Shown in pieces: positions 8,506 to 64,000 of a stretch of DNA of 64,000 nucleotides; the stretch's first letter is position 1, and each line of letters opens with the position of its first letter. This DNA comes from a virus (taxonomy: Duplodnaviria; Heunggongvirae; Uroviricota; Caudoviricetes): the IMG/VR virus record IMGVR_UViG_3300031760_000016, positions 43,455 through 107,454 of that record. One strand, written 5' to 3'. The notes under the pieces are model-generated. The model ran no database searches. It saw only the letters and a program-made list of their open reading frames with translations, and was not told the DNA's origin. The translations under genes were made by a program, and so were the position numbers.

Positions 8506-8570
8506 TCTTCGGCTTAATTGATTCGCAAATACGATTGTGGAATTTTAAAAATCATGGAGGGTAATCAAGT

Positions 8571-11958: not shown

Positions 11959-12128
11959 AACCTTAGCTTATGATACCAGAGCTCGTTCAGGGAGTGAAAG
12001 TGGAGGCTCTGAATGGGGTTAGCGCTTAGCCGTTGCCTGAATAGGGTCGCCGAAAAAGAAAAGCGTATATATGCACTGAGCAAGCGAAATTCATGAAAAT
12101 GGCATTCTACTTAACATTAAATTCGCCA

Positions 12129-22164: not shown

Positions 22165-22971
22165 ACAGGGATTTGTGCCAGCGTATTCAAAGTTCTCATA
22201 TTCACTCAGCAGGTTCCAGCTGGAGATCATGTCCCAGAACAGCATTCCGGGTTCTCCCATGTCCCAGTTGTTCTCCGCGATGTGATGGAACAGCTGCCTT
22301 GCGTTTACGGTTTTGCGAATGGTTTCGCCGGTTTCGGAGCGCGTGAACCTGAGTTCAAACGGCTCATCGTTTTCCACGGCCTGCATGAATTCATCGGACA
22401 TGCGGACGGAAATGTTGGCTTTGGTGACGCGATCGAGATCCTTCTTGATGTCCACGAATTCCTCGATGTCCGGGTGATCACAGCTCAGAGAGAGCATCAG
22501 CGCACCGCGCCGGCCATTCTGGGAAATCAGCCCGGTAACCATGGAATACAGATCCATGAACGACACCGCGCCGGAACTCGCCTTTGCCGCGTTTCTCACG
22601 ACCGCGCCCCTGGGTGCCAGCTTTGACAGGTCAGTGCCGCATCCTCCGCCGTACGAATACGTGCGAGCCAGCTTCTTGGCGCAATCAAAGATGGATTCGA
22701 GGTTGTCCTCAGGAGGCGTGACGACATAGCAGTTACTATAGCTGATTTTCTTTCCTTCTTTTGTGAGTCCGCGGTTGGCGAGGATGCGCCCTCCAAACAG
22801 GAATTTCTTTTCCAGAATCAGGCGTTTGACCTGAGGGTCATTACCGCTCACTCTGGTCACCCATTCCAGAAAGCTTTCGCCATCATTGCGGTATTTCTGC
22901 TCCCAGATGTTTATGCCGATCTGATTATCAGCGCCGAGCCAATCCTGTACCGTCATTTCTCTGGCATCCAA
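22165..22971 (-). CDS. nrdJ: Class II ribonucleotide reductase, exon 1
   Basis: Blocks IWEQKY...LEWVTRVS, SNCYVV and GGGCGTDLSKLAPRGA; ends ...YAGTNPC at the intron insertion point. Confidence 0.7.
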
Positions 22972-29206: not shown

Positions 29207-29527
29207 TTAGTAGGGCTCAAAGGGGCTGTGTTGCGTTGCCTCCTCGTACAGAATCTTGTCGCCTTGGAAGTTCACGTCTATGTACTCGCCCTCGTTCATT
29301 TGCGGTCCGTTGCGGTTGAATCGAACGAACAGCTTTTTGTTTCCGCAGACAGTCCCGTCTCGCTGAATCTCTTCTGGGGACTTGTCCTGAATCATGATGA
29401 TTGTGCTCGCATTTCTGGCAATCTTGGCGCTGTCCGCGAGGCGGCCTGTTGAGGTGGCCTGCGCCGCGCCGATGCCGGCGATGTTGAGTTCACCACACAA
29501 TTTGTTCTTGACCGTCAGTGTGTTCAT
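29207..29527 (-). CDS. dnaB: Replicative helicase DnaB, exon 2 (C-terminal segment)
   Basis: 106 aa. LCGELNIAGIGAAQ ~ LAKELNVPVIALSQ; GRLADSAKIARNAS ~ SDLRESGSIEQDAD; VRFNRNGP ~ AKQRNGP in E. coli DnaB. The 5' boundary is approximate. Confidence 0.6.
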   Translation of the reverse strand: MNTLTVKNKLCGELNIAGIGAAQATSTGRLADSAKIARNASTIIMIQDKSPEEIQRDGTVCGNKKLFVRFNRNGPQMNEGEYIDVNFQGDKILYEEATQHSPFEPY

Positions 29528-29791
29528 CTGCTTTCACAGATGCCTGGACTATATCATCGCTGCTTTCAGCGCCGACCGCTTAGTCTCTGAACCTTCCCCT
29601 GTTCGGGGCTTGGCTGCTGATTGCCCATTGAATCGCGCTTAGGATTTGACCGTACGCTATCCCGTGAATTCTTTCCGCTTTCGCCGCCTTCGCGCTCACA
29701 ACTTTCGCTGTCACGCTTTGGCTTCACGGGCTTTAGGGTTTTCCAGCAATTCGATCGGTTTTTCACGGCATTGCTACCGTGGGACTGGCCA
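29528..29791 (-). mobile_element. HEG-less group I intron splitting dnaB
   Basis: About 264 nt between the two DnaB exon ORFs. Minus strand carries Q-like GGGCAAUCAGCAGCCAAGCC, R-like AAGGUUCAGAGACUAA and S-like GAUGAUAUAGUCC. It shares 19-nt and 16-nt blocks with the nrdJ intron. Exact splice junctions are not determined. Confidence 0.6.
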
Positions 29792-30832
29792 TCAATCCAC
29801 GATTGAACCTAGGGAGGAGTACACGGCGTAGGCGTCCATATCGGACCCCGTGCCCTTGAAGTAATCGATGATCAGGACGTCAATGCCCTGCGTGTGAAAG
29901 ACGCGCTTGACGTTTGTGTACATCGTGCTTTCATCGAAGATCGGCATGTACAGATGCGTAAAGCTCTGCTGTTTCAGCCATGCGATCGCCTCGCTGATTT
30001 TCGCGGCTTCCGCGTCGTCATATCTGCCGGATCGCAGACGTTGAAACTCGATTCCCGTCAGATGGGAAATCATACGACATGTGAAAAGCTTGCTGTTCAG
30101 TTCGCTGTCGATATAAAAAACCTTGCGGCCGGCGCGGAGAAGATCCACCGCGCAATTGAGCAGCATCATTGACTTGCCTTGCTTCTGTTCAGCACCGAAA
30201 ATGATGAGCTCGCCGCGCTCGATCATCACGTAGTTGTTCAGCGTCGGAAATTTGAACGGGAAAACCGCTGCCATGTCGGGATTCTGCCGGGCTTCGATTT
30301 CCGTCCAGTACTTCTCGATCACGTCTTTGTACTGCGGAATCTCGTTCGTTGTGGAAAACTCCATGATGACGTTGTCGAGCAGCGACGTGATCTGCTGTTC
30401 AATGTTGCTGCATTCGGAGTTAAAGCAGATGTTCTCGCACTCCACGAGCCTTTGGTAAGTGTGCCTCCTGAACGCCGCATCGATCACGGCGTTCGCGACC
30501 ATCATATAATCCTCCGGCTCGCTTCTGGCGATCAGCGACGCGTTGTCGAAGAGTTCCTGAAGCGACTGGTTGGTGATGATCGAGTTGACGTTCTCGCTCA
30601 CGTGCTCGGTGCCGCGTTTCATGTTGAGAAAGTTGATGATGTTGTAGGCGTCGATCTGCTCGATGCCCTTCTTGGCGAGTTCGCAGACGGCGTAGTAGAT
30701 GTAGGCGTTCTGCGGATTGGTAAAGTAGTTCGGTTTGAGTTGTTCTGAATGGAATGTCAGTTCCGGCGTCATGACCACCGAGGCGATTACGCCCGCCTCG
30801 GCTTCGACATTCTTGATGTCACCTACTGTCAA
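29792..30832 (-). CDS. dnaB: Replicative helicase DnaB, exon 1 (N-terminal domain + Walker A/B)
   Basis: 346 aa. GELIIFGAEQKQGKSMML (Walker A) and VLIIDYFKG (H2). The ORF terminates where DnaB should continue; the rest is in ORF 29207..29527. Confidence 0.7.
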   Translation of the reverse strand: MTVGDIKNVEAEAGVIASVVMTPELTFHSEQLKPNYFTNPQNAYIYYAVCELAKKGIEQIDAYNIINFLNMKRGTEHVSENVNSIITNQSLQELFDNASLIARSEPEDYMMVANAVIDAAFRRHTYQRLVECENICFNSECSNIEQQITSLLDNVIMEFSTTNEIPQYKDVIEKYWTEIEARQNPDMAAVFPFKFPTLNNYVMIERGELIIFGAEQKQGKSMMLLNCAVDLLRAGRKVFYIDSELNSKLFTCRMISHLTGIEFQRLRSGRYDDAEAAKISEAIAWLKQQSFTHLYMPIFDESTMYTNVKRVFHTQGIDVLIIDYFKGTGSDMDAYAVYSSLGSIVD

Positions 30833-36834: not shown

Positions 36835-37200
36835 TCACTCGCTTTTCAGATTTGATTTGGGATCCTCCGGAACGTTCTCGGTCTCTCCCTCAGGGCATTG
36901 CCAAGCCCATGCACAATAGGCATATTCGCCCTGTGTGGCTGTCTCTGGAAACGCCTGCGCCATGACCTCGCCCCACATTCGCATGGATACCATGAAGCAC
37001 ATGCCGTCGTCAAACATCGGGACACCGTGGTCGCCGTACTGATGATAATTGCCGGTGAATCTGTAGTTTTTCCGCCTGAGCTCCCGGACAACCTCCTTCC
37101 AGCGCTCGTAGAAAAGCTCGTCTTTTTCCGCGAATTTGAATCGGTTGTCATCCCAATCGACCCAGCTTACGATTTCCAAAGGCATCACCTCCGAATACAA
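36835..37200 (-). CDS. Hypothetical protein
   Basis: 121 aa. Confidence 0.35.
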   Translation of the reverse strand: MYSEVMPLEIVSWVDWDDNRFKFAEKDELFYERWKEVVRELRRKNYRFTGNYHQYGDHGVPMFDDGMCFMVSMRMWGEVMAQAFPETATQGEYAYCAWAWQCPEGETENVPEDPKSNLKSE

Positions 37201-43062: not shown

Positions 43063-43625
43063 TACAAGTACCCCTTAGTCAATAATATGCCTATGATGTA
43101 ACTATTCTATTACGCTTCTGGCTGTTTGTCAACCGCCTTGCTTTTGTAGTGCTCCTTGGTTATGTCAGCCATGGCGTGGTATGAAGCTTCTACGCCTTCC
43201 TTCCAGCCCCTATCATAATCCCCGAAGTACTTTGAAGCGGCGTTCCAGCCCTCCGTCCAGCCCTGCGACCACGGGCTGCCTTCGCGGTATTGCGTGAAAC
43301 ATATGACGATGCCTGCCGAGATAGCTCCGCCCGCGAAGCAGATGAAATTCAGCATTGCCCCTGACATGACCACCCGTCCTTTACCGGTTCAAAGGTGTAG
43401 ATCGAGTTCAGAGTGTGAACTACGACGGAATCAGCGGACATGTCGAATTCCGTCACGGTCGAGGTGCTCATCCAGCCATCGTTGGGCGTGCCGTCCGCGT
43501 TCTCATAATACTGGACGACCAGCCGTCGTTTAGTATGCACACCGAGTGGAAACCAACAGACGCGGCCGATCCTCATGGGATAGCGGCCGTCATCCCTGTC
43601 GTAGCCATCGAGATCCGTGATGGAT

Positions 43626-48577: not shown

Positions 48578-48746
48578 TATTGATTGGGTTTGGTTTCACA
48601 ACCTGAATAGCTCTGAGGCAGGGTTTTACCAGGATCTGCGATCCGGATACCTGAAGTGCGCCGGAGCTTGTATCACATGAACTCGAACTTGTCAAGTCCT
48701 GTGAAGGATTTCTTGTCAGGATGACCATTAAGATTTGCGCTCTGAT

Positions 48747-48950
48747 GGAGCTTGGATTGCGAAATCTTCACTTGGTCGGAGCTGGGTACGGGGTCGCACG
48801 GCTGCAGTGATCTGCATGCGGCGTGCCCGCTGCTCGCCGAACTCTGGCGCCGTCGGTGCCCGTCGTCATCTCGGGTCCCTCCGTCGTCCCGACAATTTGT
48901 TACTCTGGATATGATCGCAGAGCACTCGCAAAGAGTAATGCGTTGTGAAA
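48747..48950 (-). repeat. Non-coding element A (paralog of element B upstream of the RT)
   Basis: Shares ggagcttggat at one end and tcccgacaatttgttactcYggatRtgatcRcagagca at the other with 53263..53450. The interior has diverged. Confidence 0.6.
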
Positions 48951-49475
48951 CGATAGTTTTGTTGTCTCCTTGCATAAATATAGAATCTGACAGCACCCCT
49001 GAAACAGCGGATGTCTCCGGCGTTTCAGCTATGCTCTAAACGCAGAATTTCGATTTTACCTTGACTTTACATTGAAAAACCTCCTTCGCTGAGTCGAAAA
49101 GCTGGCCTGTCGCGGCACCTGCACAGCGGAACATTCTTGAGTGATGAATGCGGAGCTGTGTACATCAGGGAGGTTAAAAGGAACCGTAGGTTCCTTTGAA
49201 AACCCTGACTATGCGTCACTCCGGTGAAGCACGCAGAGCTGCGTCTCAGAGGATATGTACTGATCCGCAAATGTTCGTGCCGCGACCTGCCGTGTCTGTC
49301 ATCTGCGTTTACCAGGGCTTTGAACCTGCTGCATTGTCCCGGGAATGCAGGCCGCATTACAGATTGCGGATGGGGAAGGGGAAAACCATCCGCAAAATGC
49401 CAGCTGGTCTGGAAACCTGATCACACGCCAGATGGAACGCTGTGAAGGCTTGGCGCATGTACCAGGGTGGAAAAG

Positions 49476-51956: not shown

Positions 51957-53102
51957 TCAGGACTGTTCCTCAGATCTCAGCACGCTGCGGATCATCTTCA
52001 TGACGTTGACCCCGTGCTTTTCGTTAAACCACTTGATGAACTCCTCGACGTACTTCTTTTCGACCATCTTGTAGTAGCTGATCTGGCCGGAAAGCACATA
52101 GACGTCGTGGATATCCCACTTATCACCGCTCTGGTAATCCCTTATGAAGCTGGTGAGCGCCGCCTTGAGCTGGAGCTTCTTCTTGCGGCCGATGGTGATC
52201 TGATTGTCCCTGTTGAGCATGACGCCCAGATTCCAGTTCCTTCCGGCGCTGGATCCGTAGCGCGTCTTTTCGTCCTTCAGCTGGAACGGGGCGTTGAAGC
52301 TTGCCAGAACGGAATTGATATAGTCGCACATCTCCTTCGGATCGAAATCCTGCCTGTGCGAAAGCTGGATGTCATCGGCATACCGGGTGTAGACAAAACC
52401 CTTCTTGACCACGTCATTCATGATGCGGTGGTCGATGGGAACCATCATCAGGTTTGTCAGGGTGGGGGAGATCGGCGTTCCCTGCGGAAGCCCGCCGTCG
52501 AGGAAACACAGGCTCAGGGCTTTGGCAAGTTCATCCCTGCCGCCGGGAGCTTTGACGACTTCGCTGAACGGGAAGATGCGGGAAACCATATCGAACAGGA
52601 ATTCCTCAGTGGTGCTGCCGAAGAAATTGGAGAAATCCGTTTTCAGGAACCACCGGCTTTTGTTCTGCTGGTGGCGCTTGATGGCGTCGATGGTACTGCG
52701 CCCCTTGACGTAGGCGAAAGCCGCCGTGTGATACAGCGCACCGAAGTTGTTTTCCAGAATCGTGCGGAGCGTGCGCAGAGCGCCCATCAGTTCCGGCAGC
52801 GGTTCATCGATCTTGCGGTAACCCTTGGTGCGCTTGGGGATGTAAAACGTGTGGTAGAGCGAATGGCGATCCTTTTCAAACAGAAAAGCATAGGACGTAT
52901 TGAACGTGTGCAGAAGGCTGATGAGACCGGGGACGTTGAGATTGCGGGTGTAAGCCGGGCTGACCCAGTTCACCAGATGAGTCACCGTGCCGGTGATCTG
53001 GTGCTTGGGCGTGTCCCAGCCAAGCGGAACCCTGCCGAGAAGCACATCCTCAAACGAAAGCTGATGTGTTCTCGGCGTTTGCATGACGGTGATGTACGGC
53101 AT
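51957..53102 (-). CDS. Reverse transcriptase (retron/defense-RT-like, no maturase or endonuclease domain)
   Basis: RT motifs FLKTDFSNFFGS (motif 2), GLPQGTPISPTLTNL (motif 4), VYTRYADDIQL (YADD, motif 5), NLGV...ITIGRKKK (motifs 6-7). Start set to the ATG at 53102 with AAAGGAG 6 nt upstream; the ORF-track TTG start is at 53129. Confidence 0.75.
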   Translation of the reverse strand: MPYITVMQTPRTHQLSFEDVLLGRVPLGWDTPKHQITGTVTHLVNWVSPAYTRNLNVPGLISLLHTFNTSYAFLFEKDRHSLYHTFYIPKRTKGYRKIDEPLPELMGALRTLRTILENNFGALYHTAAFAYVKGRSTIDAIKRHQQNKSRWFLKTDFSNFFGSTTEEFLFDMVSRIFPFSEVVKAPGGRDELAKALSLCFLDGGLPQGTPISPTLTNLMMVPIDHRIMNDVVKKGFVYTRYADDIQLSHRQDFDPKEMCDYINSVLASFNAPFQLKDEKTRYGSSAGRNWNLGVMLNRDNQITIGRKKKLQLKAALTSFIRDYQSGDKWDIHDVYVLSGQISYYKMVEKKYVEEFIKWFNEKHGVNVMKMIRSVLRSEEQS

Positions 53103-53262
53103 ACGAACTCCTTTCTGATTGATCTGCAATCTGAATGCAGTGCGCGGTCTTCAGGGTAACCAGGAAGAGCTGAGGGATGTGATGATTGGGAGTCGAAACC
53201 CTGCCTGCTGAATCTCGCCGACTGCTGATGTGTCGGGAAAATGCGATCTTTTTCGACCTGTT

Positions 53263-53450
53263 GGAGCTTGGATGACCTAGAAGTGGTGGCTTTCAAGCTC
53301 GGACCGGTCGTCGCCGGATCAGCACCTGGGAGGAGAGCTCGATCGGCCGCCTTCCGCCGGCTGCCGCGGGTCGCCCCGTCTTCCCGACAATTTGTTACTC
53401 CGGATGTGATCACAGAGCATTGGGAAACCCAATAATGCATTGCAGACTTG
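53263..53450 (-). repeat. Non-coding element B, within the structured leader upstream of the RT
   Basis: Paralog of element A. Followed on the minus strand by hairpins, e.g. GCCCGCC-GGAA-GGCGGGC at 53450-53467 and AUUGGG-UUU-CCCAAU. Confidence 0.6.
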
Positions 53451-53472
53451 CCCGCCTTCCGGCGGGCTTGAA

Positions 53473-54237
53473 TCACATTTGAATCATGGACCGGAACAGT
53501 TCCAGAAGACCTTCGTGCTCATGGGTTTTTGAGGTTTCCAGACACCAGATGTGCTCGCCGGAATCAATTTCGATCACAGGGGCGTCCGGCTTGATGCGAA
53601 TCATGGGGTGGATGAGAAACACATCCCGGCACAAACCATGTGTCATGGAGCCAAAGTTGTATATGAGGATATGCCCTGCGTCCGAAACCCCGGTTCGAGT
53701 CATGATGTTCGAGTGGGGAACTTCGCCGATGGCCTGACTGAGCGCCGGGAGATACTCACCGTCCGGAACCTCGGGTACATCCACAAGCTCAGACTCGCTG
53801 GGGATCGAAACCTTGCAGGTGACCGTCTGCGCCCTGCCAAATTCCTTAATACTTCCGGGCGGAACGGCGATCGGAACCTCTCGGTCGATCAGCATGGCCA
53901 GCTCTTCGTCGTCAAAGAAGGTAAGGAAGCCGTCATACACGCCGTCCGGGCATCTGTCATACTGATGCATCGGAGTGTATGTAAAATCCTTGCCGCCGTT
54001 CAGCCACTGGAAGAGGTTGGAATGGGGAAAGTAGTTGTTGCCATAAGCGCGTTTTGCGGAAGACGGGCTTTCGAATTCGCGCCTGTCGAAGGAACGCCTG
54101 CCGACAGACCTCATGGCGAAAAGGTCATTGGAATCGGAAACCTTTTTCCAGAGAATGTCATCGTTGTTATCACCCAGATTGACGCCGATGTTCAGCTTGG
54201 TTCCCAGCGGCAGTTCACTGATCGTCAATATGCTCAC
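53473..54237 (-). CDS. Hypothetical protein
   Basis: 254 aa, no recognisable motif. Lies between the E1-like gene and the RT leader. Confidence 0.45.
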   Translation of the reverse strand: MSILTISELPLGTKLNIGVNLGDNNDDILWKKVSDSNDLFAMRSVGRRSFDRREFESPSSAKRAYGNNYFPHSNLFQWLNGGKDFTYTPMHQYDRCPDGVYDGFLTFFDDEELAMLIDREVPIAVPPGSIKEFGRAQTVTCKVSIPSESELVDVPEVPDGEYLPALSQAIGEVPHSNIMTRTGVSDAGHILIYNFGSMTHGLCRDVFLIHPMIRIKPDAPVIEIDSGEHIWCLETSKTHEHEGLLELFRSMIQM

Positions 54238-54259
54238 CTCCTTCGAGAATCGGGATTGA

Positions 54260-54955
54260 TCAGAACGCGTCCAGCTGGTAGGTGAAGGCGTCCAACAGGA
54301 TCAGCTTCTTGATGCCGTTGCCCTTGGCAAAGTTAATGAAGTTGGAAACCCCCAGCGCCACGATCGCCTTGACCGTGGAGCAGACGGACAGGGTCAGGTT
54401 GCAGGCGGAAACCGGCGTTTCGGCCTTGGCTTCATCGTGGGTGAACTGCATCGAGTTCAGAAACGCTTCCACCATCCTGCGATCCTCCCAGTTGGCGGCG
54501 TAATGCTGGGCGTCGGTCAGCCGCATCCGGAAGTCGAACATGCCCTTGATGAACAGGTTGTCCTTGTTGGCGGTGGCGATCTCGCGGCGCAGATCGATGT
54601 TGTCCACGCAGAGGAACACATAGCCGCTCAGCTTCTGGCCGACATAGCCCTTCTCAACCAGTTTCAAATCCCGGTCGATATCGGGATTTATCTTGTGCAG
54701 ATACTCGGCCAGCGCCTGAACCTTGGTCTTGCCGATGTCTTCCTGAGTGAACAGCTGGTTGGCAATGTTGTGGGGCTCGACGAAATCGAAGTCGTACAGG
54801 GTGATGCGGGTGACGCCGTAGCGCACCAGATTCTCAGCGACCGTGGAGCCGATCGCGCCGCAGCCGATGATGTGGATGCGCTCAGGGCACTTTTCAGGCT
54901 GGAAAAACTCGTAGCTCTTTGCCAAATCGATCATGAATTCAATCCTCCCTGTCAA
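54260..54955 (-). CDS. ThiF/MoeB/E1-like adenylyltransferase
   Basis: 231 aa. IHIIGCGAIGSTVAENLVRYGVTRITLYDFDFVEPHNIANQ is the Rossmann GxGxxG plus the D.D.VE.SNLNRQ ThiF signature. Confidence 0.7.
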   Translation of the reverse strand: MTGRIEFMIDLAKSYEFFQPEKCPERIHIIGCGAIGSTVAENLVRYGVTRITLYDFDFVEPHNIANQLFTQEDIGKTKVQALAEYLHKINPDIDRDLKLVEKGYVGQKLSGYVFLCVDNIDLRREIATANKDNLFIKGMFDFRMRLTDAQHYAANWEDRRMVEAFLNSMQFTHDEAKAETPVSACNLTLSVCSTVKAIVALGVSNFINFAKGNGIKKLILLDAFTYQLDAF

Positions 54956-55856
54956 ATCCGATCTTGGACTTCTTGCCGAAGATCATTTCGTCGTAGTCGG
55001 TCTCATCGTCCAGATAGAGGCCGGGGTACTGGCCGCTGCCGCCGAAATCCTTTTTCTGCTTGGATTTGGATTTCTTGCTGGTCGGGTAGTTCGGTACATT
55101 CGTACGGGGATAGTCATATCCGCCATAGTTACCATAGACGCCGTAGTTGCCAGAGCCATAGTTGTACGCGGAGTTGATCGAAGCGACATTCCCGGTGGTC
55201 TTGGCGGCCGGCGTGCTGACCTTGACCACGTCCTTGGCGTCGCTCAGGAACGCATCGAAATCGCAATCCTCATCGTAGATTCCGATGTCGACGTCCTTGT
55301 CCTCATACAGGGTGTTGTTCTTCAGGTCGTAAACCTTGATGTTGCGCTCGTTGCGCTTGTTGAAGATGCCGAAGATGTAGAATGCGTCCTCAGCGACCTG
55401 AGCCAGAATGCTTTCCCGGTGCTGATCGTCCACAGCGGACGGGCTGGTGGCCATGTTGACGTGGGAATGCCCATGGAATCGGATCGCGTTCGCGGTATCG
55501 TCATCCATCTCCATGAGCCACTTGGTGTAGCCTTCGAAATCCGTGTTGACCGTCGTCCCGGTCACCACCTGAGGGTAAACCATGATGTCGTGAATGACGA
55601 AGCAGTCGTCGGCCAGGCGCTCCACGGTGCCATGCCAGCCAACCTCGCTGGTAAAGCTGTCGACCAGCGTCTTCATCTTGATATAAGCCCGGGGCGTAAA
55701 CAGAACGGAAACCCCGGTGTCATCCGCGCCCTGATAGGTGAAGTTCTTCTTGTAGTTGATGCTGCCGTCGCTCATGCGGTGCTTGCGCAGCATCTCGTTG
55801 AACTCCTGGGTCATCTGGGCGATCAGTGCCTCAGTGAACTTGATCGGCTTGGACAT
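54939..55856 (-). CDS. JAB/MPN(+) metalloprotease-like protein with Gly/Tyr/Asn-rich low-complexity tail
   Basis: 305 aa. HSHVNMATSPSAVD fits the JAMM zinc motif HxHx7Sx2D. C-terminal region GNYGVYGNYGGYDY is low complexity. Confidence 0.6.
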   Translation of the reverse strand: MSKPIKFTEALIAQMTQEFNEMLRKHRMSDGSINYKKNFTYQGADDTGVSVLFTPRAYIKMKTLVDSFTSEVGWHGTVERLADDCFVIHDIMVYPQVVTGTTVNTDFEGYTKWLMEMDDDTANAIRFHGHSHVNMATSPSAVDDQHRESILAQVAEDAFYIFGIFNKRNERNIKVYDLKNNTLYEDKDVDIGIYDEDCDFDAFLSDAKDVVKVSTPAAKTTGNVASINSAYNYGSGNYGVYGNYGGYDYPRTNVPNYPTSKKSKSKQKKDFGGSGQYPGLYLDDETDYDEMIFGKKSKIGFDRED

Positions 55857-57337
55857 TATTCGTTGCCTCCTTCTGCATTCTCATTCGAATTGGGATCCTG
55901 AGCGTTCAGCCACTCGACGGCTTCCTGAGGGGAGACGTTCTTGCCGTCGGGAAGTTCGATAACCTTCTCAGACGTGGTGAACAGCTGGTCGAGGAACGGA
56001 CCGAAGGTGACGCCTTCGGCGATGTTGATGCTGCCGGCGGAAGCGATGCACTGCATGATCGCGCCGATCGGATCGCCATCGCGAAGTCTTTCCTCGATCA
56101 GCGGGCGATTATTCCCGATGCAGGAGTGCCGATTGAGATGGGTATTGGGAATATAGGAGTTATAATCATCGCCGAAGTAGTGGTTGCGCTCGGTGTCAAC
56201 CATGCCCCGCATATCGATGGCAAAGTAGGCACACATGCGAACCTTGAGGACGGGCTCATCGCTGAAGAGCGCATCCATGAGCTTGCGGCGAACGGCTTTC
56301 TCTCTGAAGAACGGACTGTAGTCGCGTTCATTCCAGATGTGGGAGAAGTTGTTATCAACGAACCGGGAATACATTTCCGGATCGAAATTTACGAGGTAGG
56401 TCTTGATGTGGAAATGGATCATCTGCTCGTACGTGTTGATGATTTCCACGGATTTGTTTCCGATGAAAAACTCTGCGAGCTCATTGGACTCGCAGCCCTG
56501 AGCAATGATGGCCTTCAGGCCGGTCTGGGTGATCCGATAATCTTCGAGCTGCTTGATCAGCCTGCGATAGTTTGCAATAATATCATCGATCTGTACGTTG
56601 GTGTTGTCGATGTCACGCTCAATGGACTGCAAGCGGGCACGATTAGCACGCTTTTCAAAACCGTTGAGCATGCTGCGGATGAGCGTTTCACGCAGGTTGA
56701 AGTTGTCAGCGATGGCAGCCATGGTTTCAATGAAACTCTGAGATCCTTTCTTCTGAAGCGATTCCAGAAGCGAAATCTCAATGGCTTCCAGGGGCTTGTC
56801 CTTGAAATACCAGGGCATGTAGCGGGGAATGAAGGACTGGATGGCGTGGTAACTCTTTATCGTCATCCGCTTCACGAAGATGTAGGAGAGCTTGACCTCG
56901 GGGACGATGAACACAACGGTCGTGATGCCGAGCTTTTCGAAATACTGCTCGACGTCTACCAGTTCCTCTGCGGAATTGAAACCCGTTCGATTGAGTCCCT
57001 TGAAATTCTTGCGGATGCAATCCAGAGCGAATTCCGGATCGTCGTTGTCAACGGACACGGCGTAGACCGTATCCGAACGGTTCCTGGAACCGAAGATGGC
57101 GTCGAAGATGCGGTAGAAGGGGTTGTTTTCGTAGTCGTACTTGGTGTAGCCAGCGCGGAGATTGCGGAACGTAACCCGGTTGTTGCCCAATTCGATGCGC
57201 TTGAGCAGAAGTGCCCGCAACACCGCTACAAAGGTCACATCTTCGCGATACAGGTCACCTCCGACGGACTCGAACAGATTGCCGGCGTGTTCGGAAGTGA
57301 GCATGAGCTCGCTGCTTCTGATGCACTGATTGAACAT
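55856..57337 (-). CDS. Hypothetical protein (493 aa)
   Basis: Long ORF with no recognised motif. Its start overlaps the stop of the JAB gene. Confidence 0.45.
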   Translation of the reverse strand: MFNQCIRSSELMLTSEHAGNLFESVGGDLYREDVTFVAVLRALLLKRIELGNNRVTFRNLRAGYTKYDYENNPFYRIFDAIFGSRNRSDTVYAVSVDNDDPEFALDCIRKNFKGLNRTGFNSAEELVDVEQYFEKLGITTVVFIVPEVKLSYIFVKRMTIKSYHAIQSFIPRYMPWYFKDKPLEAIEISLLESLQKKGSQSFIETMAAIADNFNLRETLIRSMLNGFEKRANRARLQSIERDIDNTNVQIDDIIANYRRLIKQLEDYRITQTGLKAIIAQGCESNELAEFFIGNKSVEIINTYEQMIHFHIKTYLVNFDPEMYSRFVDNNFSHIWNERDYSPFFREKAVRRKLMDALFSDEPVLKVRMCAYFAIDMRGMVDTERNHYFGDDYNSYIPNTHLNRHSCIGNNRPLIEERLRDGDPIGAIMQCIASAGSINIAEGVTFGPFLDQLFTTSEKVIELPDGKNVSPQEAVEWLNAQDPNSNENAEGGNE

Positions 57338-57418
57338 TTTTTGTCACCTCTGCTTCATTAAGAATGCCCCCGGAGACGAGTCCGGGGGCAGTGCGAATGG
57401 GAATCGAAACCAGATCCC

Positions 57419-58060
57419 TTACAGAACCTGGATGTTGTCGCGGATCGCGGCCAGCTCGGCTTCGATCTCAGCGGCGGCGGCGGCGAACTGGGCTTCCACC
57501 TTGTTCAGCTGCAGGATGCCGGTGCCGATGGTCTCCTCAGCCCACTTCTTGGCGTCGGTGACGTCCTCGGGCAGGAGCATGGTCACGATGGCCTTGCCGT
57601 CAGCGTTGGCCTGAGGGGCGAAGCTCACGCCGATGGGGTTGATGCTGCCGGTGCCCTTGCTGGTCACACCCACACGGAAAACCTCCTGCTTGGTGCTGCC
57701 CTCGGTCTCGAACAGCTTCAGGGCGTTGGGGCGGTACTTGCCCAGGGTCTTGATGGAATCCAGATCCGCATCGGATTCCACGACCACGGCGCGGCCGGCG
57801 ACCTTGATCTTGGCAGCGTTGTCGGCCTTGACGACGCTCAGCAGGTAGCAGCTGGTGGTGATGCCCAGATCGGCGAAGGTGCGATCCAGCATGCCGGGCT
57901 GCAGAGTAGCGCCGTCCAGCATCAGCTGACCCATGGAGTAGTCGACACCGTTCTCTTCCAGAGCCTGGCGCAGGGTGTTGTTCTCGTCGACGATGACACG
58001 GTTGCGATTGGTGGTGTTGCCGATGGTGACATTGATCATACTATGTACCTCCGTAATCAA
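57419..58060 (-). CDS. Hypothetical protein with possible N-terminal ubiquitin-like beta-grasp domain
   Basis: 213 aa. First ~75 aa (MINVTIGNTTNRNRVIVDENNTLRQALEENGVDYSMGQLMLDGATLQ...CYLLSVVKADNA) have ThiS/MoaD/ubiquitin-like periodicity. The C-terminus is Ala-rich. Confidence 0.3.
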   Translation of the reverse strand: MITEVHSMINVTIGNTTNRNRVIVDENNTLRQALEENGVDYSMGQLMLDGATLQPGMLDRTFADLGITTSCYLLSVVKADNAAKIKVAGRAVVVESDADLDSIKTLGKYRPNALKLFETEGSTKQEVFRVGVTSKGTGSINPIGVSFAPQANADGKAIVTMLLPEDVTDAKKWAEETIGTGILQLNKVEAQFAAAAAEIEAELAAIRDNIQVL

Positions 58061-58893
58061 TTCGTTTTTGGATTTGGAAACAGATTGGAAACCCGGATTC
58101 TCAGACCGTCGGTGCTCTTACTCTTTTCATTGGAATTCCCTTCCTTTCTGGCGATTGACTCGCGCCCTTCAATTCGTACCGCATTTCTCAGCCGCATTTC
58201 TGCGTTGCCCGCTCTGAACCACGTGGAGGTGAATGCTTTTCTACTTCTCAGAGCATTTGGGCAGCGTTTCCCACGCGCTGCCCTGAAAGGAGGAGACCAT
58301 GAAGAATTTCATTTTAATTTCAAAATCCGTTTGCCGCTTAAAGCGTTGCCCGCCCTGAACCGCGTGGAGGTTGGATTACTCAGGGCATTTAGGCGGCGTC
58401 CCCGCAAACGCCGCCCAGGAACGAGGGGGAAAGGAGGAACCCCCTGTCCCTTAGTTGTAAGTGTCGAAGATGGAAGGTACCATGATCTCGGTCCCATCCG
58501 AAATGGGAATCATGGTCGGACGGTAGATCGTGATTCCGTGCTCATGCAGGATGTCTTCGATCTGATCCTCAATGGCTTCCAGAGTTTTAGTGTCTATGCC
58601 GATGTCTTCCAGTGAAATGTCATCTGGCTCGACACCGATCAACCTGCAGATGAATTCGTGGGTGTACTGGTCGATGTCGTCCTGCCGGCGGATGACCTCT
58701 TCGTAGTCATCCGAATTCTCGGCCATATTGAATTCCTCTTCATCATCCTCGATCTCGATGGTGAGAGAATCCGCGTCGATCACCGGCTCAGAAACCGGTG
58801 GGGGAGTGTTGCCAGTGTAGGCAACGATCGTTTTTTCCTTCAAAAGACGGCACCTCCGCTATGTAATCACAACCGGATTGAAAACCGGCGCTG

Positions 58894-59295
58894 TCACTGT
58901 CGCATCAGAATGGAATTGAAAAGTGGAAGCAGTTCAGATTCAGAAGGAAGATCCTTCTCGGGTTCCGGGTGCTTGAGCATACCCGGGCTGAAGAGGTAGT
59001 CATGGGGTTCGACGGTCACGACGATGCCGTTTCGTTCGAAACCCTTGATGGTGAAGATCAGACCGCAGTATTTCTGCATGCAATCCAGAAACATGAGATC
59101 ACCGCAGTCGATGCCTCCGTCGGAATAACCGAATTCCTCGCCCATTTCCTCATATTCCTTGACCTGGACGAGGTCACCGACCTTGAAATTGTGTTTGGGT
59201 TTGATTTCAAATCCCTCCTTCGTAGTTATTAACCGCAGGCCGGACTTATCGGGTTCAGATTCCCTGCCGTCCGCCTTGGCCGGAGCGGATGCCAT
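58894..59295 (-). CDS. Hypothetical protein
   Basis: 133 aa. Confidence 0.35.
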   Translation of the reverse strand: MASAPAKADGRESEPDKSGLRLITTKEGFEIKPKHNFKVGDLVQVKEYEEMGEEFGYSDGGIDCGDLMFLDCMQKYCGLIFTIKGFERNGIVVTVEPHDYLFSPGMLKHPEPEKDLPSESELLPLFNSILMRQ

Positions 59296-59832
59296 CCAGC
59301 CTGCGGCTATGCGCTTTTTCTGGCGGGTTCAACGCATGAACCACGATGTGGTACTAGGGAAGCCGGAAGTGTACATTTCCTCCCCCCTTTCAATTGGAAT
59401 CAAAAAGCACCACCCTGCGATTGGGCGGTGCTATACGCCGAGGACATGCTTGAAGTCTGAAAAGTCTGTCGGTTTAAATTCCGGTTCAGAACTTTCAGTG
59501 ACTGGCTCAAAGAAGCTTTTGTGCCAGAAGTACATGTCGAAATCTTCGGGATCCGGAACCTTTTCCCTGACATCATCCGCATTCGGAATCAGTTCCCCGT
59601 CGTCGTCGATGTGATCGACTCTGAACACAAGACCCGAGAACTGCGACATATCCGGAACGAAGTTGTCAACATCCGTTGACCAAATCGAACCGTCATTGGA
59701 AATCCCATACTCTTCCGCAAGGGAATCCCAAGTGCGAACCCGGACGAGTTCGCCTTCAGCGAAATCCAGAATCGGAATCAAAACCATCTCCTTTCTGTAA
59801 GATAAAAGCGCCCTTTTGAAGGGGCGCTTAGG

Positions 59833-60219
59833 TCAGGTCTTTTCGACGAATATGCCTGGGATCGTGCAGGAAATGGAAACCTCTCCAGAATCGGTGGCAT
59901 CCATACTGACAGCGGAGCACTCGCGGAGCACATCGCAGAACTTCTTCACCTCGTCGCCGAACAGATCGAAAACGATGAAGTTTGCGGTTATTCCGCACGG
60001 TGGAACGAGCGGATCAAGATCAACCGAAACGATTTTGCCGCCCAAATCCTTGGCTGCCTTGTCAAAGAACATCGCGAGCTTCTTCAGCTTTTCGAGCTGA
60101 ACCTCATCGACTTCGAAATCCTCAGGTTTCATGTTCTGCATTTCGAGGTCGAAAGCTGCAACGAGCTTTCTGGCAAATTCTTTGTCGGTCATGTTGCTGT
60201 CAAAGAAGCTATCAGTCAT
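59833..60219 (-). CDS. Hypothetical protein
   Basis: 128 aa. Confidence 0.35.
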   Translation of the reverse strand: MTDSFFDSNMTDKEFARKLVAAFDLEMQNMKPEDFEVDEVQLEKLKKLAMFFDKAAKDLGGKIVSVDLDPLVPPCGITANFIVFDLFGDEVKKFCDVLRECSAVSMDATDSGEVSISCTIPGIFVEKT

Positions 60220-60239
60220 TATGTTTGCAACACCTCTTT

Positions 60240-60971
60240 CTAATCTGATTTCAAAACTCCATTGCCGGAGTTATTGAAGCTGTGTTGAGTCGCATCGCGG
60301 GTATATCTCAAACCACGATACAGTTTTCTCATGTCATACTGCGGATTAGATTGCTTGTCGAGTTGAGCGAATACTCTTTCCATGATGGGCAAAACCGATT
60401 CGTCGTTAATTGTCTGCCCTTTTGTCGCGAGATCAAAAACCCCATCAACAAACTCGGGTACAGTTAACCAGTGTTCAGTATATATTGCCTTCATGGAAAG
60501 CTTTCTGTACACAAATCGCGGTTGAATCACTTTCTGCCTTATAGTTAAGCCGTTGTCAAAACCTGAATCGTTTTTTGATTCGAGATTTCCAACACCAGAC
60601 TCAACTTGTTCAACCGCCCTGATTAACTGATTGATTGCCTTCCTGGCGTGATACAGGTCGTAATACTGTTCTCCGTTGTTCTTCCTCTCGACCATGGTTG
60701 GATAGATATCCTCCATGATACTAAGAGTTACTTGGTAATCAATTACAACCGATTTCTGAACCAATTCAAAAACCCTGTCAACAAACTCTGGTATGGTCAA
60801 CCAGTATTTAGTGCATGTTTTACTTATCGGTAATCTCCAGTACAGAAAATGCAGTCGCTCAGCTTTCTCCCTTGTACTCGTCACCTCGTTCACTGGCAAA
60901 TCACCTCCGGTTTCAAATCCCGAGGTGATTATACCATTTTCCAGCCCGCTTTTCAACAGGCGATGCTGCAA
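60240..60971 (-). CDS. Hypothetical protein with internal ~90-aa tandem duplication
   Basis: 243 aa. Two copies of a (T)xYWLTIPEFVDxVFxL...IMExIFxxL module. Confidence 0.4.
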   Translation of the reverse strand: MQHRLLKSGLENGIITSGFETGGDLPVNEVTSTREKAERLHFLYWRLPISKTCTKYWLTIPEFVDRVFELVQKSVVIDYQVTLSIMEDIYPTMVERKNNGEQYYDLYHARKAINQLIRAVEQVESGVGNLESKNDSGFDNGLTIRQKVIQPRFVYRKLSMKAIYTEHWLTVPEFVDGVFDLATKGQTINDESVLPIMERVFAQLDKQSNPQYDMRKLYRGLRYTRDATQHSFNNSGNGVLKSD

Positions 60972-61404
60972 TCGGAATTGAAACCGATTCTGATTTCGAT
61001 TCCGGGACGGCTGCCAATGACGTCATCCATGGTCGCCATCACCAGCTTATGGGCTTCTGCGATCGCGCACCGATCGCATTCGATATGCATGCCCCGCATG
61101 CAGCAGATGTTGCAGGAATTGCTGAAACTCTTTTCAGCCTGAAACCTCGTGGAGGCTTCGATTTGGCGATTCACGCCAATCTGTTCGAATTTGGTCATGA
61201 TATTATTACCTCACTATCGCGGCTACAATGACGGAACCGAAGATGATTATGATTGTCCCCATGGCCGCAATCAGATTAGGAATGAAAACCTTGATCGCAT
61301 TAGCGGTCATATGTACCGAACACTTAAAAACCCGGATAACCTTGGCACGCTGTCTTCTGCGTTGAGCGGCCTGCCTGCGCTCAAGGTACGTCACTCCATC
61401 ACCT

Positions 61405-62200
61405 CCAAATCCAAATCAGATTCGATTCCAGACCTTCAGATGCCCATGGCGAGCATCGTGAAAGCCCTTCTGCCGCGGTGCCAGACTTCGACGTCCAAAC
61501 CGCTTTTGTACCAGCGCATCGCTACGCTGCGAGACTTCGTGGTTTCCTGAGTCTCGCAGTTCACGTAGAAACTGCCTTTCAGGATCAAGTCGAAAAACCT
61601 CCATTCATTTTGGATTTCAAACCCTTGACTCTGCGTTTACACGGGCTTGTCACCGTCAGAGGCCGCATTAAGGGAGGCGCAGTCAATGTCAAGTAGTCGG
61701 CCAAATGCTTTGTACAGACGCTGCGCCCAGCCGTCTGGACAGTTCTTTGACCCGCGTGGATTATGCACCAACACGCTGGTGCTCGCGGAGAGTTTGAGTA
61801 TCACCACCTTAAAAACCCAAATTGGATTCAATTCCAGATCCTCAGGTGTGCCCGCTTTTTCTGGGACACCCAGCCCAAGAGCCTGAGCCGCTCTCGCTCT
61901 TTGCTCCACCGGAACTTTGGCCTACCCGATGGCATAGGCGAAAAACCCAAATCAGATTCGATTCCAGACCCTCAGCAGAACGACCATACACCGAGATCGG
62001 TATTGCGACTGAGCTGCACAGATCCGTCAGTTGCAGACAGGACATCGTGGATCCCAGCGTAATCGGGATTGCTGTCGATCTTGGTGGCCAGTTCGGCCTT
62101 TTCACACAGGGTCAGTTCGTGGGTGACCCAGATGATTCCATCAGTGAACATTTTCCACCTCGCTTGATTCAGATTCAATTCCAGACCCTCACGGTCTGGA
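61405..62200 (-). repeat. Four dispersed copies of a ~35-nt motif (minus strand CTGAGGGTCTGGAATCGAATCTGATTTGGGTTTTT) in a ~900-nt region without credible genes
   Basis: Cores at 61417-61434, 61821-61838, 61953-61970 and 62170-62187. The listed ORFs across them are translations of the repeat (ELNPIWVF / ESNLIWVF). Confidence 0.7.
61622..61672. repeat. Element X (ccttgactctgcgtt...ggcttgtcacc...gccgcattaagg), paralog of 63731..63792
   Basis: Three conserved blocks shared with the second copy. Confidence 0.6.
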
Positions 62201-62296
62201 GCCTACCAGCATCGCAGACAGAGCTCACAAGACTTTGCATCTATTGACTCTTTGGCTCAGATGTGATGCTGGCGGGCATTCTGGGCAGATGCCGCG

Positions 62297-63163
62297 TTAC
62301 GCGGCGGTTTCTTCAGCAGGCTGTTCCTTGGTGACCACGATGGTCTCGGTCGCAGCCTCAGCGGGGGCAACCTCAGGCTTCTTCGCCTTCTTGGCAGCCT
62401 TCTCGCCATCGGGCTTGACCATCTTGTAATCGACGGAATACACCAGATCGTTCGTGAGACGGTAGAGGACTTCGGCAACCAGCCGGGTGACGGTGCTGGT
62501 ATTGGCAACCTTCAGGGTCAGCTTCTGGCTGCCGCGGCGGGTGTAGGAGTAAAGCAGATACTTCACGTCGAAGTTGTTGATCTTGTAGACGTTCTTGCCA
62601 TTGCCATCGTCCACGAACAGGATGGAGTCGATGACAGTCTGGAGCAGCTTGGTCATCTGCGAGTTGGAGACGGGAGTTCCGCCCATATCCAGCTCACGGG
62701 CCTTGTCGGACATGCGGTAGGTGGTGGCAACCTTCTGGGCAACTTCCTTGCCCGAGTGACCGAGATCGTCATGGATGCGGATGCAGAGCAGCTCACCCAT
62801 CTTTTCGACCTTGTACTTCCAGAGGGTGTCCTTCTGAAAGAACTTGAACAGAGCGGCCAGGTCGATCTGCTTCTCAGCATCCTCGACCAGTTCCATACCG
62901 AGGATGACGTCGCCGTCACGGTTGATCTTGTGGCGGAGAACCGGGAACCAGCCGCGCTTGATGCCCGCGAGAATCGGGTTCTCAGCGTCGCGGCACTCGC
63001 CGAAGGTATCCAGCTGGGACTGCTGAGCGTATTCCTTCTCAGCGTCCTTGACAGCACTTTCGGCCTTGTTGATGGCTTCGAGGTTCTTGTCATTTACGGC
63101 CTTGTTGTAGGCCGCGATTGCGGCGACAACCTTCGCCTTAGCTTCCATACCGAGTTTCGTCAT
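62297..63163 (-). CDS. Hypothetical protein with Lys/Ala/Pro/Glu-rich histone-H1-like tail
   Basis: Start set to the ATG at 63163 (RBS AAGGGGG). C-terminus KPDGEKAAKKAKKPEVAPAEAATE is low complexity. Confidence 0.45.
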   Translation of the reverse strand: MTKLGMEAKAKVVAAIAAYNKAVNDKNLEAINKAESAVKDAEKEYAQQSQLDTFGECRDAENPILAGIKRGWFPVLRHKINRDGDVILGMELVEDAEKQIDLAALFKFFQKDTLWKYKVEKMGELLCIRIHDDLGHSGKEVAQKVATTYRMSDKARELDMGGTPVSNSQMTKLLQTVIDSILFVDDGNGKNVYKINNFDVKYLLYSYTRRGSQKLTLKVANTSTVTRLVAEVLYRLTNDLVYSVDYKMVKPDGEKAAKKAKKPEVAPAEAATETIVVTKEQPAEETAA

Positions 63164-63730: not shown

Positions 63731-63792
63731 CCTTGACTCTGCGTTAGGGGCTTGTCACCCGCCAGCGTTGTTCACACTGGGCCGCATTAAGG
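63731..63792. repeat. Element Y, second copy of the X element, immediately preceding the terminal tandem array
   Basis: Same three blocks in the same order. Confidence 0.6.
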
Positions 63793-63808
63793 TGGATTTT
63801 TCCTCTGG

Positions 63809-64000
63809 CTGCGGGGGGCGTTGCCGTCCGTCCGTTCTTTGTGCGGGGGGCGTTGCCGTCCGTCCGTTCTTTGTGCGGGGGGCGTTGCCGTCCGTCCGTT
63901 CTTTGTGCGGGGGGCGTTGCCGTCCGTCCGTTCTTTGTGCGGGGGGCGTTGCCGTCCGTCCGTTCTTTGTGCGGGGGGCGTTGCCGTCCGTCCGTTCTTT
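63809..64000. repeat. Perfect 32-nt tandem repeat (GTGCGGGGGGCGTTGCCGTCCGTCCGTTCTTT), 6 units, truncated by the window edge
   Basis: Units at 63809 (first 2 nt differ), 63841, 63873, 63905, 63937 and 63969. All others are identical. Confidence 0.9.

Follow-up and report, generated by a model that had tools for sequence, protein, structure and literature searches.

In this study, a family of short direct repeats was characterized in a 64,000-nt stretch of viral DNA of the class Caudoviricetes (IMG/VR record IMGVR_UViG_3300031760_000016, positions 43,455 to 107,454), hereafter called the window. The repeat is real, lineage-specific, 28-35 nt long and found on the sense strand only, and it occupies intergenic positions in the non-structural region of the phage, always in the orientation of transcription. 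An initial annotation of the window had placed four copies at 61417-62187, and a direct-repeat search confirmed them as four 35-nt direct copies within 800 nt of the minus strand. In total, the window holds these four strong copies, one moderate copy (57393-57420) and one possible copy (36841-36868). Tentatively, the repeat is read here as an RNA-level element of intercistronic "punctuation", or leader element, in a long, processed operon, which would also act as a recombination boundary.

The copies were scored with a profile (nhmmer) built from the window copies and those of a related phage, L015, and with a position weight matrix (PWM). They are listed below with their neighbours, among which are open reading frames (ORFs), Shine-Dalgarno (SD) sequences, the genes p288 and p206 (288 and 206 aa) and a structured RNA, RNA X.

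62158-62192, minus strand: strong copy W4, cGTGAGGGTCTGGAATTGAATCTGAATCAAGCGAGG, between p288 and a 59-aa ORF, its 3' end abutting the SD GAGGTGG (E=2.3e-5, 32.6 bits)
61941-61975, minus strand: strong copy W2, whose TGA is the stop of the 59-aa ORF (61972-62151), with RNA X next (E=2.7e-7, 39.9 bits)
61811-61845, minus strand: strong copy W3, 3' of RNA X; next come GGGTTTTTAAGGTGGTG and a doubtful 56-aa ORF (E=8.5e-7, 37.7 bits)
61405-61439, minus strand: strong copy W1, whose TGA is the stop of a 50-aa ORF (61436-61588) (E=2.9e-6, 37.3 bits)
57393-57420, minus strand: moderate copy W5, TAAGGGATCTGGTTTCGATTCCCATTCGC, directly after the p206 stop (E=0.065, 26.7 bits)
36841-36868, minus strand: possible outlier, GGAGGATCCCAAATCAAATCTGAAAAGC, in the last codons of ORF 36835-37179 (E=0.039, 19.7 bits)

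The strong window copies share the consensus cTGAGG(G/A)TCTGGAATYGAATCYRATTTGG(GTTTTT). Two exact matches to the 21-mer CTGGAATCGAATCTGATTTGG lie at 61411-61431 and 61947-61967 (minus strand), and one with three mismatches lies at 61817-61837, for a chance expectation of zero. Moreover, the 16-mer given in the initial annotation was matched six times with up to two mismatches against 0.34 expected. An alignment of 13 copies (A3) was used for the consensus and pairing tests. In the pooled consensus, TGAGGATCTGGAATCGAATCTGATTYGG, no variation is seen at G5, T7, T14, A17 and A23 and almost none at C8, T19 and C20, and the motif is legible as four GRWTC-like pentamers spaced 5-7 nt apart. When the four strong copies were masked, SD words were the only ones enriched in the non-coding sequence (2373 nt) of the minus-strand gene block; TTGAAA was observed there five times against 1.1 expected, which was not significant after correction. 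GANTC and GATC show mild local enrichment and their sites are not conserved across copies, and the idea of a methylation site was rejected on these grounds.

The family proved smaller than the at least ten intergenic sites initially proposed, since only the four strong copies and one or two moderate ones were recovered. The site at 57396-57420 held as a family member (W5). It aligns in the transcribed-strand sense (TAAGGGATCTGGTTTCGATTCCCA versus TGAGGGTCTGGAATCGAATCTGA), and the statement that some copies are inverted was therefore wrong. A GC-rich terminator-like hairpin (57390-57365) begins 5 nt past W5. The dyad at 60966-60998 (minus strand), which occupies the last 15 codons of the 81-aa Cys-rich gene Cys81 just upstream of the -35 element of a sigma-70-like promoter, scored E=2-6 and less than 10 bits, and one arm alone resembles the motif core. 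No significant profile or PWM score was obtained at 58075-58100, at 58867-58915 (which codes for the C-terminus of a 133-aa ORF), at 53192-53210 (inside a retron-like non-coding RNA region) or at 48588-48600. The copies do not form a genome-wide consensus either, being limited to one hypervariable segment of ~0.8 kb plus one or two outliers. The PWM score of the possible outlier at 36841-36868, 19.7 bits, compares with 18.8 bits for the best reverse-strand background, and this copy ends 10 nt before the next ATG.

The position of the copies relative to strand, stop codon and start codon is regular. All 14 strong copies in three phages, plus all weak copies inside clusters, lie on the transcribed strand, and no match above 19 bits was found on the reverse strand of the ~0.9 Mb scanned. 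On the 5' side, the upstream stop codon forms motif columns 1-3 or abuts the motif in W1, W2, W5, copies d and e of L015 and the copy of a further relative, L003. The TGA that opens the motif is the true stop of the 59-aa and 50-aa ORFs of the window (A59 and C50), of a 40-aa ORF in L015 and of a 45-aa ORF in L003, and TAA or TAG abuts the motif at p206 (W5) and at a 69-aa ORF of L015. On the 3' side, the downstream start codon lies 9-26 nt past the motif end in 10 of the 11 copies that precede an ORF. The near-start position described initially therefore stands, and the distance of 20-40 nt given for it is restated: the motif begins ~37-54 nt and ends 9-26 nt before the start. In W4 and the L003 copy the SD begins 0-3 nt after the motif, and 4 nt separate the end of W1 from the SD GGAGGTG of a 62-aa ORF (D62). 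The L015 copy at 6962 lies inside the upstream ORF and yet its distance to the next SD is unchanged; the motif is therefore anchored to the downstream start. Furthermore, eight copies precede non-coding RNA or other non-coding sequence, including RNA X in the window and X1 and X2 in L015, suggesting that a purely translational role would be insufficient.

The cluster of strong copies is confined between the conserved genes p288 and Cys81, in the one segment of the operon that is not conserved. The order of modules there is p288, W4, A59, W2, RNA X, W3, the doubtful 56-aa ORF (B), a twister-P1-like ribozyme, C50, W1, D62, 7 nt and Cys81; every joint bar the 7-nt D62/Cys81 junction is thus occupied by the motif or by the ribozyme. 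A59 and C50 have no homologues in the relatives, and D62 has a weak one only. The number of modules in the segment ranges from about 0 (L122) and 1-3 (L018, L001 and L003) to 4-5 in the window and at least 8 in L015.

L015 is a phage with ~53% protein identity to that of the window (53-55% in the flanking genes). L015, L016 and L017 are independent assemblies of one phage, as are L013, L014 and the window. At the same locus, L015 carries at least eight strong copies along with four weak ones; all lie on the sense strand and are only 62-80% alike, and the motif family is also present in the L016 and L017 contigs. Between the 45-aa gene, which is orthologous to its L015 counterpart, and the Cys-rich gene, L003 has one copy and L015 has ~1 kb of modules bounded by the motif. 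When the window was compared with L015, nothing non-coding could be aligned except the twister ribozymes, RNA X and the copies of the motif; the repeat is therefore either kept by selection or passed between phages. Neither L001 nor L018 has the motif, and it is missing from 77 metagenome loci (682 kb) and 14 loci of metagenome-assembled genomes (MAGs) fetched via the 206-aa protein, and the motif-free relatives showed no substitute repeat family at the same locus. A scan of IMG/VR with the exact motif gave no match. One degenerate pattern gave five unrelated single matches, and a second gave 23 (L021-L043), none of which was a tRNA or had a second copy. Most of these 23, which are unrelated AT-rich viral contigs of marine type, share a sequence that, translated by eye, encodes ..RGSGFNSDSD..; this coding match may serve as a reminder that the motif resembles coding sequence.

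Known signals were sought at the copies. Sigma-70 hexamers (TTGACA- and TATAAT-like, 16-18 nt apart) were found at none of them, and a host sigma-70 promoter is not supported; yet the same scan detects TTGAAA-17-TATAAT at 60956-60928. The latter site (minus strand), in full TTGAAA-17-TGgTATAAT with a near-consensus extended -10, lies upstream of a 211-aa gene and ~450 nt downstream of the copies. It is the only near-consensus (11/12) sigma-70-like site in 57-64 kb and is conserved in L001, L003, L015, L018, L122 and L133. As to an intrinsic terminator (a G+C-rich hairpin with a U-tract), the terminator scan listed none of W1-W4. The sequence GGGTTTTT follows W2, W3 and L015 copy a only, with A/U-rich stems of -8 to -11 kcal/mol, and individual copies form weak hairpins whose registers differ between copies. 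In a T-stem test, the paired fraction of both candidate helices equalled that of column shuffles (144/500 and 303/500 reached the observed value), with no excess covariation. ARAGORN located six tRNAs in the window, all of them outside 53-64 kb. When 61380-62300 was searched with the Rfam models at E up to 10, neither a tRNA match nor any family overlapping a copy came up, and a scan of L015 at E up to 5 returned no match overlapping the copies there. From reading the sequences alone, the conserved columns and spacings misfit CsrA (GGA), sigma-54, sigma-H, extracytoplasmic function (ECF) sigma, the Spo0A box, the CodY box and cre, and likewise IHF, RAT, nut/box, SECIS and CRISPR-repeat (Racr) elements.

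We tentatively infer from this body of evidence that the repeat is recognized at the RNA level, with cleavage or ribosome loading as the outcome, and that it has a role in recombination. Among the looser functions put forward initially (a processing site, an operator, the target of a site-specific enzyme), this reading takes up the first. An RNA-level role is favoured by the strict sense orientation, the anchoring to stops and starts and the presence before non-coding modules as well as ORFs, together with the lack of promoter features, the lack of a conserved helix and the positional equivalence with self-cleaving ribozymes. The absence of both sigma-70 hexamers and a covarying hairpin fits the recognition of single-stranded sequence. 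Each copy would bridge two modules, starting on, or directly at, the stop codon that closes the preceding small ORF, continuing as ~28 nt of weakly structured A/U-rich RNA built of GRWUC-like pentamers, and ending just ahead of the SD of the next ORF or of the 5' end of a structured RNA. Its sequence would be recognized specifically, and an endoribonuclease of the host or the phage would most probably cut the modules apart there; in addition or instead, the motif would offer ribosomes an unstructured landing pad. RNase Y of Staphylococcus and Streptococcus has a reported preference for G followed by A/U-rich single-stranded RNA. The motif would in this way do at its joints what the self-cleaving ribozymes (twister and HDV-like) do at others in the operon. 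Moreover, since direct repeats flank unrelated modules, the copies are probably also recombination patches, that is, stretches of homology through which recombination may gain, lose and swap modules.

Several observations weigh against the punctuation reading. About 90 related loci share the ribozymes and the flanking genes without the motif, which indicates that it is dispensable for the operon, and some neighbouring genes are coupled at gaps of 7-20 nt without it. Every third base of the motif is near-invariant, which neither an RNase model nor a standby-site model predicts. The partial dyad described below is just as compatible with binding by a dimeric DNA-binding protein or with a recombinase core site. 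Finally, no candidate nuclease or binding protein was identified; the 59-, 56-, 50-, 62- and 81-aa products and their L015 counterparts matched no Pfam family and so supplied no candidate binding protein. A bolder form of the punctuation reading, which we regard as rather improbable, is a two-part code in which joints would be marked either by self-cleaving ribozymes (twister-P1, HDV-like) or by the protein-recognized motif, the motif doubling as a point at which phages would exchange entire expression modules, ribozymes and RNA X included. In a stranger variant of this code, UGA would be partly read through to give a conserved GSG-hydrophobic-acidic-S-D tail, which would account for the fixed third bases.

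A rather unlikely explanation is a DNA-level regulator site akin to an operator, a stoperator or the ESAS repeats of mycobacteriophages, in which a phage or host protein bound to a quasi-palindromic GGATC-N7-GAWTC core at numerous sites close to the operon start would silence or tune transcription of the early operon in an orientation-dependent way. The dyad TCAGGATC-N7-GATYCTGA is partially symmetric (74% of cells pairable) and is a perfect 8+7+8 in L015 copies g and 6962, and its departures from symmetry are uncompensated, as in ESAS (PMC3203893). The phage is probably temperate, a related dyad stands immediately 5' of the -35 element of the conserved sigma-70-like promoter, and one-way orientation in short gaps is a hallmark of stoperators and of SAS/ESAS (PMC3203893). 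However, the dyad is poor in all four strong window copies (5-6 of 8 pairs), the 3' extension (TTYGG, GTTTTT) is asymmetric, and the copies are anchored to stops and starts rather than to promoters. In addition, they cluster within 0.8-1.3 kb instead of being spread over the genome, and no cognate regulator was identified.

It is also unlikely that the repeat is purely a recombination boundary, a "linker" with no role in expression that serves the shuffling of small modules, by homologous or site-specific recombination between copies, as PeSL cassettes or attC sites do. Such a boundary would explain the restriction to the hypervariable segment, the direct repeats around non-homologous modules, the patchy phyletic distribution and a copy number that follows the module number across relatives. 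The inverted 8-bp arms and 7-bp spacer resemble the core of a tyrosine-recombinase site, and integrase genes are present, the nearest being ~3.7 kb upstream with another gene and a terminator in between. The single copy of L003 against the many of L015, between orthologous genes, is compatible with PeSL-type recombination and is no proof of it. The arms are degenerate, however, and patches of 28 nt at 62-80% identity are poor substrates for homologous recombination. The independent assemblies of each phage (L013, L014 and the window; L015-L017) are collinear, with no module gained or lost at the motif, and a mere boundary would need neither the fixed orientation nor the fixed distance to the start codon. 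An integron attC site was considered and rejected: attC sites are imperfect palindromes of 57-141 bp that carry RYYYAAC and GTTRRRY and lie beside an intI/attI platform, whereas the motif is 28-35 nt long, ends in ATTYGG and has no GTTRRRY-type core.

A promoter for a phage-encoded or phage-modified RNA polymerase ahead of each small module, coding or non-coding, is quite unlikely. The length of 28-35 nt, the one-way orientation and the occurrence before both ORFs and RNA X would suit such a promoter, and a transcription start within the 3' TTYGG would give leaders of ~10-25 nt with an SD. Nevertheless, sigma-70 hexamers are lacking, no phage RNA polymerase or sigma factor was recognized in the window, and the SD stands 0-3 nt after the motif in W4 and L003. 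The copies lie 130-400 nt apart in one region and do not head the other transcription units of the 64 kb, and the 62-80% likeness among the L015 copies would be unusually loose for promoters of single-subunit RNA polymerases.

The near-invariance of every third base raises the question of a UGA recoding cassette (read-through, or Sec or Trp insertion), which would add, now or in the recent past, the tail G-S-G-[IVF]-[EDNK]-S-[DNE]-[LS] to the upstream micro-protein. With TGA taken as a codon, the mean entropy at positions 1, 2 and 3 is 0.78, 0.32 and 0.92 (permutation p ~0.002), and for L015 alone it is 0.82, 0.36 and 0.77 (p ~0.014); the copies are mutually related, and these p-values are therefore optimistic. 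Variation in this frame is mostly synonymous or conservative (TCT/TCC/TCA, GGA/GGG, ATC/ATT/TTC/GTC). An in-frame stop directly precedes 9 of 19 copies, five of these stops end real upstream ORFs, and a Cys codon stands before three of them (TGC TGA). The 71-aa ORF that holds copy 6962 runs through it in the GSG frame, and copy h fits best, by eye, with a 6-nt gap. Against this, most copies, W3, W4, a and f among them, lack a start codon or an ORF by which ribosomes would reach them, and the copies at 36868 and 59794, which lie in real ORFs, use other frames. The long genes of the window are intact under the standard code, so that TGA is no general sense codon; the six tRNAs include neither a suppressor nor tRNA-Sec, and the copies lack a conserved SECIS-like loop. 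When L015 is taken by itself, codon positions 1 and 3 vary to the same degree, which is atypical of coding sequence. Recoding is accordingly very unlikely, and we do not think that a peptide in the GSG frame is normally made.

Relics or mimics of a tRNA T-arm, the resemblance stressed in the initial annotation, are scarcely credible: several copies hold T-loop-like words (GGGTTCAATTCC, GGTTTCGATTCC; GGTTCRAWTCC in some) and a 5' part like a variable loop (GAGGTC), and phage tRNA genes exist elsewhere in the window and beside the HDV-like ribozyme of L015, but no copy has a complementary 5-bp T-stem, a match to the tRNA models or flanking tRNA features, and the likeness is superficial.

The setting of the repeat is a large phage genome with genes for a family-B-like DNA polymerase, a primase, a helicase and one or more tyrosine integrases, the six tRNAs and a ribonucleotide reductase split by group I introns. 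The tyrosine integrases suggest that the phage is probably temperate. The two group I introns were located at 29525-29804 and 21269-22174 on the minus strand (82 and 51 bits); one is in the helicase/primase junction region, and the other, within the ribonucleotide reductase region, holds a 215-aa ORF. The MAGs binned with the relatives belong to Clostridia (Lachnospiraceae, Oscillospiraceae, Acutalibacteraceae and Ruminococcus). Searches of the region against 50,697 phage records (megablast and blastn) gave no match, and the p288 protein has only four relatives among 5.8 billion proteins. For the 1741-aa protein at the low end of the window no record was found. In transcription order, the minus-strand block comprises the following parts.

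63790-64000 and beyond, minus strand: 32-nt tandem repeat
Next, minus strand: 570-nt leader
62297-63163, minus strand: p288, the conserved 288-aa gene
Next, minus strand: series of tiny ORFs (the variable segment)
60953-61198, minus strand: Cys81, the Cys-rich 81-aa gene
60956-60928, minus strand: conserved sigma-70-like promoter
Next, minus strand: more conserved genes to p206 (206-aa gene, 57419-58039), the E1/ThiF-like gene and the reverse transcriptase

The closer relatives examined show the gene string 206 aa, 493 aa, 305 aa, ThiF/E1-like, DUF6273 and reverse transcriptase. The 32-nt tandem repeat, GGCAACGCCCCCCGCACAAAGAACGGACGGAC, has at least six copies at 63790-64000, runs past the window end (L013 4497-4630) and is flanked by a strong terminator and the first twister ribozyme. 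The contig starts of L001, L003 and L122 carry GGACGGCA(A/G)-type sequences, in tandem in L003 and L122. The 32-nt repeat and these contig-start sequences hint that this may be the end of a genome, a site of packaging or a region of origin, or else a promoter array of unrecognised type.

The structured RNAs of the operon and their counterparts in the relatives are as follows.

61846-61940, minus strand: RNA X between W2 and W3, with compensatory changes in its three stems
L015 3513-3642 and 3677-3807: RNA X, each copy bracketed by the motif
L003 229-344 and L122 299-393: RNA X without the motif
63731-63793, 61623-61674 and 49295-49363, minus strand: three twister-P1-like ribozymes (35.5, 50 and 59 bits, E 1e-4 to 1e-10, all below the gathering score of 67.2)
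58179-58254 and 58323-58386, minus strand: tandem HDV-like ribozymes of the F. prausnitzii type (43.3 and 39 bits, gathering score 44)

RNA X is ~100 nt long with the invariant core GGAGCAAAGAGYGAGAGYGGCTNAGRCTCTTRGGCTG, and 9 of its 24 predicted pairs are compensatory across five sequences. It has no Rfam match, and in IMG/VR it was found in the L003 contig only. It occupies places that ribozymes hold in the relatives, which makes it a candidate new ribozyme or regulatory RNA. The twister element at 61623-61674 (E=5e-10) lacks the optional hairpin and lies upstream of C50, at a joint without the motif. Twister counterparts are found at the same relative places in L015 (974-1026 and 1175-1240), and twister-looking elements were seen by eye in L001, L003, L122 and L133. 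The HDV-like pair lies in a 411-nt gap upstream of p206, where L015 has a tRNA and then one HDV-like ribozyme (8346-8419); the corresponding joints of L015 show twister, tRNA and HDV-like elements. A short upstream ORF (uORF) with a conserved (K)xRSPT start precedes p206 in four phages, at the following places.

Window, ~58125-58060, minus strand: uORF before the 206-aa gene
L015, ~8470-8560: uORF before the 206-aa gene
L001, 6339-6440: uORF before the 206-aa gene
L003, 6670-6770: uORF before the 206-aa gene

In the window (MKRVRAPTV*) and in L003 the uORF is ended by an in-frame TGA in the context GTCTGAG. A motif-like sequence follows the uORF TGA, and in L015 the motif-like part belongs to the uORF (..PGSKSIHQK*).

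The reverse transcriptase (51957-53102, minus strand) resembles retron enzymes in its scores against PADLOC RT_II-A (E=3e-49) and NCBIfam retron St85 RT (E=1e-54, below cutoff), and it does not look like the enzyme of a diversity-generating retroelement, since no template/variable repeat (TR/VR) was found. Upstream of it, positions 53103-53472 form a 370-nt non-coding stretch with a long-range inverted repeat, TCTGCAAT...ATTGCAGA, like retron a1/a2, and are a candidate msr/msd region. An element of 61-75 nt (...TGCTCTGYGATCAYATCCRGAGTAACAAATTGTCGGGA...) is ~85% identical at 53367-53440 and 48872-48945 (minus strand), one copy lying in the candidate retron RNA region and the other in a 600-nt gap with a twister ribozyme. 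A weak match to drum RNA was also seen at 11965-12070 on the plus strand (35.2 bits, gathering score 43, E=0.006), in a 1.25-kb gap beside tRNA-Cys and an integrase gene.

The motif is of interest as one of only three conserved kinds of non-coding element between two phages that have diverged to ~53% protein identity, and its company raises that interest somewhat: three twister-P1-like ribozymes, two HDV-like ribozymes, two group I introns, RNA X and a retron-like reverse transcriptase with its candidate msr/msd region. Phages of gut and rumen Clostridia have received almost no experimental study. If the motif is a processing or ribosome-loading site, it would give context to the build-up of ribozymes between phage genes and could be used as a compact insulator when several genes are expressed together in Clostridia. 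Should it chiefly be a boundary for recombination, it would carry the PeSL idea of mobile regulatory cassettes beyond T4-type phages.

Among known systems, the RNase III sites of the T7 early operon are long irregular hairpins recognized as double-stranded RNA. Like them, the motif recurs at cistron boundaries of a long early transcript; the T7 sites divide that transcript into separate messages, which is the functional model favoured here and parallels the ribozymes of this operon. Unlike them, the motif has no conserved helix. The REP/BIME elements are chromosomal, GC-rich stable stems present in both orientations and hundreds of copies, which affect mRNA stability and translation of the upstream cistron. 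They share with the motif the form of ~35-nt imperfect palindromes, the intercistronic position and the frequent location right after stops, and they are recombination hot spots. The stoperators of Cluster A mycobacteriophages such as L5 are 13-bp sites, 20-30 of them over both genome arms, that are bound by the immunity repressor. Stoperators and the motif alike are short asymmetric sites that follow the direction of transcription in the short intergenic gaps of a temperate phage, or here a probably temperate one. The motif differs in having 4-6 copies of 28-35 nt, four of them within 0.8 kb of the 64-kb window, and no known repressor.

The PeSL cassettes of T4-type phages combine a strong sigma-70-like early promoter with a terminator stem-loop, both of which have been shown to be functional (PMC2839356, PMC4122927). 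The motif resembles them as an intergenic repeat in a hyperplastic region of small non-essential ORFs, where it flanks non-homologous modules and is a plausible driver of shuffling. In contrast to PeSL, it has neither promoter hexamers nor a terminator stem-loop, and no mini-circles or shuffling products were observed. In the Cluster K mycobacteriophages, the SAS repeat, GGGATAGGAGCCC, contains the SD, and the ESAS repeat is an imperfect inverted repeat with 17-bp arms and a spacer of 4-13 bp, whose departures from symmetry do not support an RNA hairpin and whose function is unknown (PMC3203893). Like SAS/ESAS, the motif is a lineage-specific short repeat restricted to the non-structural region, nearly all in one orientation, placed just upstream of the SD and start of genes of different families, and the upstream stop sometimes lies inside the repeat. 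Unlike SAS/ESAS, it has an unrelated sequence with arms of 8 nt and a spacer of 7 nt, its copies also flank non-coding RNAs (eight precede non-coding sequence), and it clusters in one hypervariable segment of 0.8-1.3 kb beside self-cleaving ribozymes. The hosts are Clostridia here and Actinobacteria for SAS/ESAS. The choice between an RNA and a DNA site, which was weighed above for the motif, was also reached for ESAS (PMC3203893). In conclusion, the motif behaves most like ESAS/SAS and, in evolutionary terms, like PeSL; it fails the defining features of both and is a member of neither.

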